Shown: in pieces, positions 59,243 through 60,354 of the stretch
Position numbering within the stretch: the first letter of the stretch is position 1
Layout of the letters: the number at the start of each line of letters is the position of its first letter
NCBI RefSeq assembly: GCF_003334765.1
Contig: NZ_QOWT01000006.1
Length of the DNA stretch: 64,000 nucleotides
DNA from: Escherichia coli
GTDB lineage: Bacteria; Pseudomonadota; Gammaproteobacteria; Enterobacterales; Enterobacteriaceae
Strand: one strand, 5' to 3'
The notes under the pieces: generated by a model
The model's input: the letters and a program-made list of their open reading frames with translations, nothing else
Database searches by the model: none
What the model was told of the DNA's origin: nothing
Position numbers and translations under genes: made by a program

Positions 59243-59249
59243 CACTAAC

Positions 59250-59275
59250 GCCCGCACATTGCTGCGGGCTTTTTG
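59250..59275 (+). terminator. Rho-independent terminator of uspF
   Basis: gcccgca-cattgc-tgcgggc-ttttt immediately after the uspF stop. Confidence 0.7.
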
Positions 59276-59418
59276 ATTCATTTCGCAAATGTGCTGACAT
59301 TTTCCCCTCTAATCCGTACCATACACGCCACAGTTTTTTATATCAGATTTCTTATGCTGGGCGTTCCGGCATGACGCATACTCTTCTGATGCCATATAAC
59401 GAATTGAGTCGCTTTTAA

Positions 59419-60354
59419 ATGTCGCAAAATCAAGAAATTAGTAAGAAAGAACAATACAACCTGAACAAATTACAAAAACGTCTGCGTCGTAACGTGGGCG
59501 AAGCCATTGCTGACTTCAATATGATTGAAGAAGGCGATCGCATCATGGTTTGCCTCTCCGGGGGTAAAGACAGCTATACCATGCTGGAGATTCTGCGCAA
59601 TTTGCAGCAAAGCGCGCCAATCAATTTTTCGCTGGTGGCTGTTAACCTCGATCAAAAGCAACCGGGCTTCCCGGAACACGTTCTGCCCGAGTATCTTGAA
59701 AAGCTGGGCGTTGAGTACAAGATTGTTGAAGAGAATACTTACGGTATCGTGAAAGAGAAGATTCCAGAGGGCAAAACCACTTGCTCACTGTGTTCTCGCC
59801 TTCGTCGCGGTATCCTTTATCGTACCGCAACGGAACTGGGGGCGACGAAGATCGCGTTGGGTCACCATCGTGACGATATCCTGCAAACGTTGTTCTTAAA
59901 TATGTTCTACGGCGGTAAGATGAAAGGTATGCCTCCGAAACTGATGAGCGATGATGGCAAACATATCGTTATTCGTCCGCTGGCCTACTGCCGCGAGAAA
60001 GATATTCAGCGATTTGCCGATGCAAAAGCGTTCCCGATTATTCCGTGCAACCTGTGCGGTTCACAGCCTAACCTGCAACGTCAGGTGATTGCTGACATGT
60101 TGCGTGACTGGGATAAACGTTATCCAGGGCGTATCGAGACGATGTTCAGCGCGATGCAGAATGTGGTGCCGTCGCATCTGTGCGATACCAACCTGTTCGA
60201 TTTCAAAGGCATCACCCACGGTTCTGAAGTGGTTAACGGGGGTGATCTGGCGTTTGATCGCGAAGAGATCCCACTACAACCGGCGTGCTGGCAGCCAGAA
60301 GAAGATGAAAATCAGTTGGATGAGTTACGGCTGAATGTGGTTGAAGTGAAATAA
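59419..60354 (+). CDS. ttcA: tRNA 2-thiocytidine(32) synthetase (311 aa), uninterrupted
   Basis: ORF 59419..60354 (+), 311 aa, [59 protein letters not shown]…; PP-loop SGGKDS and CxxC pairs (CSLC, CNLC). Confidence 0.95.

Follow-up and report, generated by a model that had tools for sequence, protein, structure and literature searches.

Our analysis showed that positions 59243-59468 of a 64,000-nt stretch of Escherichia coli DNA (the window) are almost certainly the unoccupied attB of the Rac-family lambdoid prophages, lying in the first 17 codons of ttcA. The sequence features that define an empty Rac attB were all observed: uspF is adjacent to ttcA, a single att core is flanked by both bacterial arms, the encoded protein has the TtcA' N-terminus and there are no Rac genes. 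No evidence contradicting this reading was found in these analyses. The site itself, the four-residue change in TtcA and the "ancient" TtcA of Rac-free strains are already known from the work of Liu et al. (2015, Sci Rep 5:16074; PMC4632033), who determined the sequences of attL, attR and the post-excision attB, described XisR as the excisionase, and showed the TtcA' variant that results from excision to be present in Rac-free strains, terming it the ancient copy. The window provides the reference empty state of this well-studied site, a state almost as common as the occupied one, and identifies the strain as one with a K-12-like backbone and no Rac prophage at ttcA, hence without recET, kilR, ralRA and trkG at that place.

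Gene order and the att core

The genes around the site are, in order, ydbK/nifJ (53643-57167, + strand), MicC (57189-57309, -), ompN (57534-58667, +), uspF (58808-59242, +), ttcA (59419-60354, +), dbpA (60483-61856, -), ynaL, FnrS (62121-62238, -) and zntB (62334-63317, -). The uspF open reading frame, which ends with a TGA at 59240-59242, encodes the 144-aa universal stress protein F; it matches the NCBIfam equivalog NF011581 (302.2 bits against a cut-off of 166) and bears the same annotated name in collinear genomes. The ttcA gene, with its ATG at 59419, is intact and encodes a tRNA 2-thiocytidine(32) synthetase of 311 aa, which matches the equivalog NF007972 (513.5 bits against a cut-off of 272, residues 3-287 covered) and has the SGGKDS PP-loop motif at residues 46-51. 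The native spacer between them (59243-59418, +), the upstream region of ttcA, is exactly 176 nt long, as counted in the original prediction. The left-hand neighbour of the site is uspF, which in K-12 lies next to ttcC and the right-hand end of Rac.

Directly 3' of the uspF stop, a consensus scan found a terminator-like hairpin, GCCCGCACATTGCTGCGGGC followed by TTTTT (59250-59275, +), with 7 pairs of which 6 are G-C; this is a pattern match only. The spacer also holds a weak sigma-70-like match (CTGACA-17-TACCAT at 59294-59322), of a kind no more frequent than in shuffled sequence. A search of the 176-nt spacer for RNA elements gave no Rfam family with a credible score; STnc310 (19 bits, gathering score 40, E = 0.32) overlapped the uspF terminator hairpin and was rejected. 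Elsewhere in the window, MicC and FnrS matched their Rfam families above the gathering score, as did the sok antitoxin RNA adjoining hokB (5064-5215, +) and RydC (5775-5838, +), and all four lie where K-12 has them. Right after the ttcA stop, positions 60355-60450 contain palindromic GC-rich units, e.g. GCCGGATAAGACGCGGCCAGCGTCGCATCCGGC, which look like REP/BIME elements between the convergent ttcA and dbpA genes.

The K-12 MG1655 annotation places the 'cryptic prophage Rac' at 1411899..1434958, a length of 23,060 bp, in keeping with the original prediction, which had placed an element of about 23 kb at the 5' end of the K-12 ttcA gene. This prophage has ttcA (b1344) and intR on one side, the stop of intR being 51 nt upstream of the ttcA ATG, and ttcC (b4638) and uspF on the other, ttcC being a 51-bp pseudogene that adjoins uspF. 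There is no adjacency of uspF and ttcA in K-12, and the att core is present in the window. A blastn comparison of the window with K-12 gave two matches that overlap in the att region: 54427-59468, corresponding to the uspF/ttcC side (99.96% identity, 2 mismatches in 5,042 bp), and 59426-64000, corresponding to the ttcA side, with sole mismatches at 59434, 59441 and 59442. Identity to K-12 is complete over 57008-59468, which corresponds to the bacterial arm at the uspF-side junction, and over 59443-64000, which corresponds to ttcA with its downstream DNA. The spacer (59243-59418) is identical to positions 28010-28185, minus strand, of the K-12 stretch compared, and remains in K-12 beside ttcC, 23 kb from ttcA.

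A three-way alignment of the window with both K-12 junctions gave an att core of 26 bp, AAGAAAGAACAATACAACCTGAACAA, at 59443-59468 (ttcA codons 9-17), identical in all three sequences. The window follows the ttcC copy to the left of this core and ttcA to the right of it, and a weaker similarity reaches from the core back to the ttcA ATG. Similarity to both junctions extends, imperfectly, over 43 bp of the window (59426-59468), an att homology whose phage-borne copy differs at 59434, 59441 and 59442. The arms of the window are thus equal to the two bacterial arms of K-12, which share the 26-bp core. This upholds the empty site that had been placed at 59243-59460, with a correction to its right-hand end: the last 8 nt of the core had been missed, and it extends to 59468. 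The core is single in the window even with 3 mismatches allowed (0 expected in shuffles), and a search around the junction for direct or inverted repeats that might form a scar returned just short, chance-level matches.

The window is collinear with E. coli IAL7250 over all 64 kb (99.99% identity), and none of the 53 RefSeq features of the IAL7250 stretch (opgD to dgcM) is an integrase gene, a phage gene or an insertion sequence. IAL7250 replaced NDM6 as the genome for annotation transfer, ydbA of NDM6 carrying IS3, unlike that of the window. A tblastn search with 29 K-12 Rac proteins gave no match in the 64-kb window at E<=1e-3, and neither of the two elements of a scar like that of Nissle 1917 (see below), an integrase fragment and a phage-type ttcA start (MQENQQIT), was found in the window. 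The collinear annotation, the tblastn and repeat searches and the single core all agree with the earlier assertion that the window has no integrase, phage gene or repeat scar. These results cover the 64 kb of the window, and a Rac-like element could lie elsewhere in the genome: a related prophage has been described by Liu et al. at another locus, potB, in CFT073 (PMC4632033).

We also compared a predicted attP (intR-side arm, core and ynaM-side arm) with 50,697 phage records and found none that covers the two arms together. Those that matched (Rac-SA53, vB_EcoS-683R6 and Salmonella phage SPF_0923) are prophages deposited with flanking host DNA and do not establish the attP arrangement. In Rac-SA53 (KU052037.1), the depositors annotate an att of 26 bp whose position is that of the window core; it has 3 differences from that core and 14 identical bases, TACAACCTGAACAA, at its right end, and the crossover may be confined to this 14-base part. 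The surrogate ttcA start of Rac-SA53, MQENQKNTKKEIYNLNK (1852-1901), is unlike that of K-12 Rac. SPF_0923 (ON032529.1), deposited as a complete phage genome, holds E. coli-type chromosomal genes (for pyruvate-flavodoxin oxidoreductase, ompN and uspF) and, after uspF, a ttcC-like junction followed by sitABCD; the record is a prophage region with host flank and not a packaged genome.

The 5' end of ttcA with and without Rac

The TtcA protein of the window starts with MSQNQEISK and that of K-12 with MQENQQITKKEQ; the two are identical at 307 of 311 residues, and the changes are confined to residues 2, 3, 6 and 8. Since the translation of K-12 ttcC equals the first 17 residues of the window protein, the native 5' end of the gene is the one in the window, and that of K-12 ttcA is supplied by the phage. 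Both the difference in the first residues and its explanation by a native, prophage-free 5' end had been anticipated in the original prediction. Published accounts disagree on the number of TtcA residues altered by Rac excision: four are given in PMC4632033 and two, Q6E and T8S, resulting from 'three base changes', in PMC11014345 (NAR 2023). The sequences compared here yield four changed residues (2, 3, 6 and 8). The 'three base changes' correspond to positions 59434, 59441 and 59442; the first seven bases of ttcA differ too, but lie outside the blast alignment.

Because the site is identical to the attB that Rac excision leaves in K-12 (PMC4632033), we infer that it would be a substrate for integration by IntR, which is annotated as a tyrosine recombinase. 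The likely steps, which follow directly from the junction sequences and agree with the published experiments, are the following. IntR would recombine the phage site with the core inside ttcA codons 9-17, and the phage arm next to intR would contribute an ATG and initial codons resembling those of ttcA, as a result of which ttcA would remain intact after integration with four residues changed. The native ttcA start, with codons 1-17 and the 176 nt upstream of them, would be stranded 23 kb away, beside uspF, as ttcC. In the window, ttcA has its native upstream region and N-terminus, and uspF its own terminator with no inserted element behind it.

An occupied site leaves ttcA 51 nt behind intR and without its native 176-nt upstream region, and no sigma-70-like promoter or terminator was found in the 600 nt of phage DNA immediately preceding ttcA. 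It is conceivable, if rather doubtful, that in the occupied fraction of E. coli (roughly 54%) ttcA transcription, and hence s2C32 modification of tRNA, depend on phage-derived sequences or on read-through from intR; ttcA transcription is not discussed in the paper describing the site (PMC4632033). If this dependence is real, the ttcA regulation in the window would be the ancestral one. For studies of how Rac affects TtcA and the expression of ttcA, the window offers a natural comparison.

The empty state in E. coli and its history

A 261-nt query centred on the core was searched in 5,426 complete E. coli genomes. The empty junction is uninterrupted in 2,489 of them (about 46%), and the K-12-type intR/ttcA junction is present in 2,906 (about 54%), an 'occupied' count that includes heavily degraded remnants, as seen from Nissle 1917 and AH21H052, which hold just a 231-nt integrase fragment (locus 170-400) beside a ttcA with the phage-type start. 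Among the 5,411 genomes that gave any match, 5,395 have one or the other of these junctions. Occupied sites vary in content: O157:H7 strains have a full intR at the ttcA site, and at least 80% of K-12 Rac is found in one place in only 349 of the 5,426 genomes.

The word 'native', as we use it, refers to the state of the sequence alone, given that precise excision of Rac yields the same sequence (PMC4632033, PMC11014345). Lineages that were never occupied and lineages that have lost Rac are consequently alike in sequence. The empty site may well be secondary, a K-12-like ancestor having carried Rac and precise IntR/XisR excision having rebuilt the native attB; we regard such a history as a serious possibility, at somewhat less than an even chance. 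What makes excision a real possibility is the near identity of the flanks to K-12: the left flank has 2 mismatches in 5,042 bp and the right flank (59443-64000) has none, which leaves 2 SNPs in 9.6 kb around the site, att differences aside, and similarity to K-12 continues through the rest of the window (99.87-99.99%). Moreover, K-12 Rac is a decayed element of 23 kb without infectious spread, which makes its recent gain by K-12 a less simple explanation than its loss here, and in the laboratory its excision is precise and leaves exactly the sequence of the window (PMC4632033), an identical excision of 23,060 bp having been reported in MG1655 (PMC11014345). Against this, excision that is precise is also traceless and would leave no positive sign in the sequence; the K-12 form of Rac is rare (349 of 5,426 genomes), and its acquisition or its decay could date from the K-12 line itself; and homologous recombination could have moved either allele between lineages. 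The reading of the site as an empty attB describes its present state and is the same under both histories.

It is improbable that the lineage held a prophage at ttcA and imported the empty allele by homologous recombination from a Rac-free donor. Donors would be plentiful, both alleles being common (about 46% and 54%), but their polymorphisms would be expected around the site, and 57008-64000 equals K-12 save for the three att positions, which would call for a donor that was itself K-12-like.

The adjacency of uspF and ttcA is hardly an assembly artefact, in which the prophage was collapsed out or excised and unexcised cells were mixed: a problem of this sort may have occurred at the same site in K-12 AG100, whose Rac-free junction has a 461-bp tandem duplication, but the junction in the window is seamless with ttcA intact, it recurs in 2,489 complete genomes, and IAL7250 is 99.99% identical over the full 64 kb. 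The AG100 sequence (NZ_LN832404.1, 2943-3403) has a Rac-free uspF-ttcA junction and the native 5' end; the duplication runs across att, and the annotation shows a partial TtcA and, after it, a shortened ttcA. It is possibly an assembly artefact from mixed excised and unexcised cells.

We rejected the idea that the strain is a K-12 delta-rac laboratory derivative: the window has scattered SNPs, and its ydbA is intact, compared with a gene carrying IS2D and IS30C in MG1655. This ydbA gene (23268-29036, -) encodes an autotransporter of 1,922 aa, the MG1655 counterpart being a pseudogene split by the two insertion sequences, and contains internal repeats of ~366 bp (27717-28082 and 28011-28376) that are about 90% identical. 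The segment 18001-43000 is present to at least 80% in one piece in only 45 of 5,366 matching genomes. Another gene of the window, gapC (6568-7568, +; type I glyceraldehyde-3-phosphate dehydrogenase), is annotated as a pseudogene with a frameshift and an internal stop in the 99.99%-identical IAL7250, and is also a pseudogene in K-12.

Relation to known integration sites

The closest counterparts of the window are K-12 delta-rac and the naturally Rac-free strains HS, IAI1, UMN026 and ATCC 8739 (PMC4632033), in which the locus, the core, the TtcA' N-terminus and the neighbouring uspF and dbpA are as in the window. We see no difference of substance from these strains, the strain of the window being a different natural isolate. 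Elements of the Rac-SA53 type use the same site in ttcA and have a related IntR integrase 51 nt upstream of ttcA; there, unlike in the window, the site is occupied. Phage 21 and e14, which integrate at icd, resemble Rac in inserting inside a protein-coding gene and in providing a replacement gene end that keeps the gene functional. They replace the 3' end of icd, whereas in ttcA it is the 5' end, including the start codon and the upstream region, that Rac replaces, and the integrases and cores are different. Excision also restores the coding gene that contains the att site in the 'active lysogeny' of A118 in comK of Listeria (cited in PMC4632033), as it does for Rac. However, comK is inactive for as long as A118 is integrated, whereas ttcA is intact in both states, with four residues changed between them.
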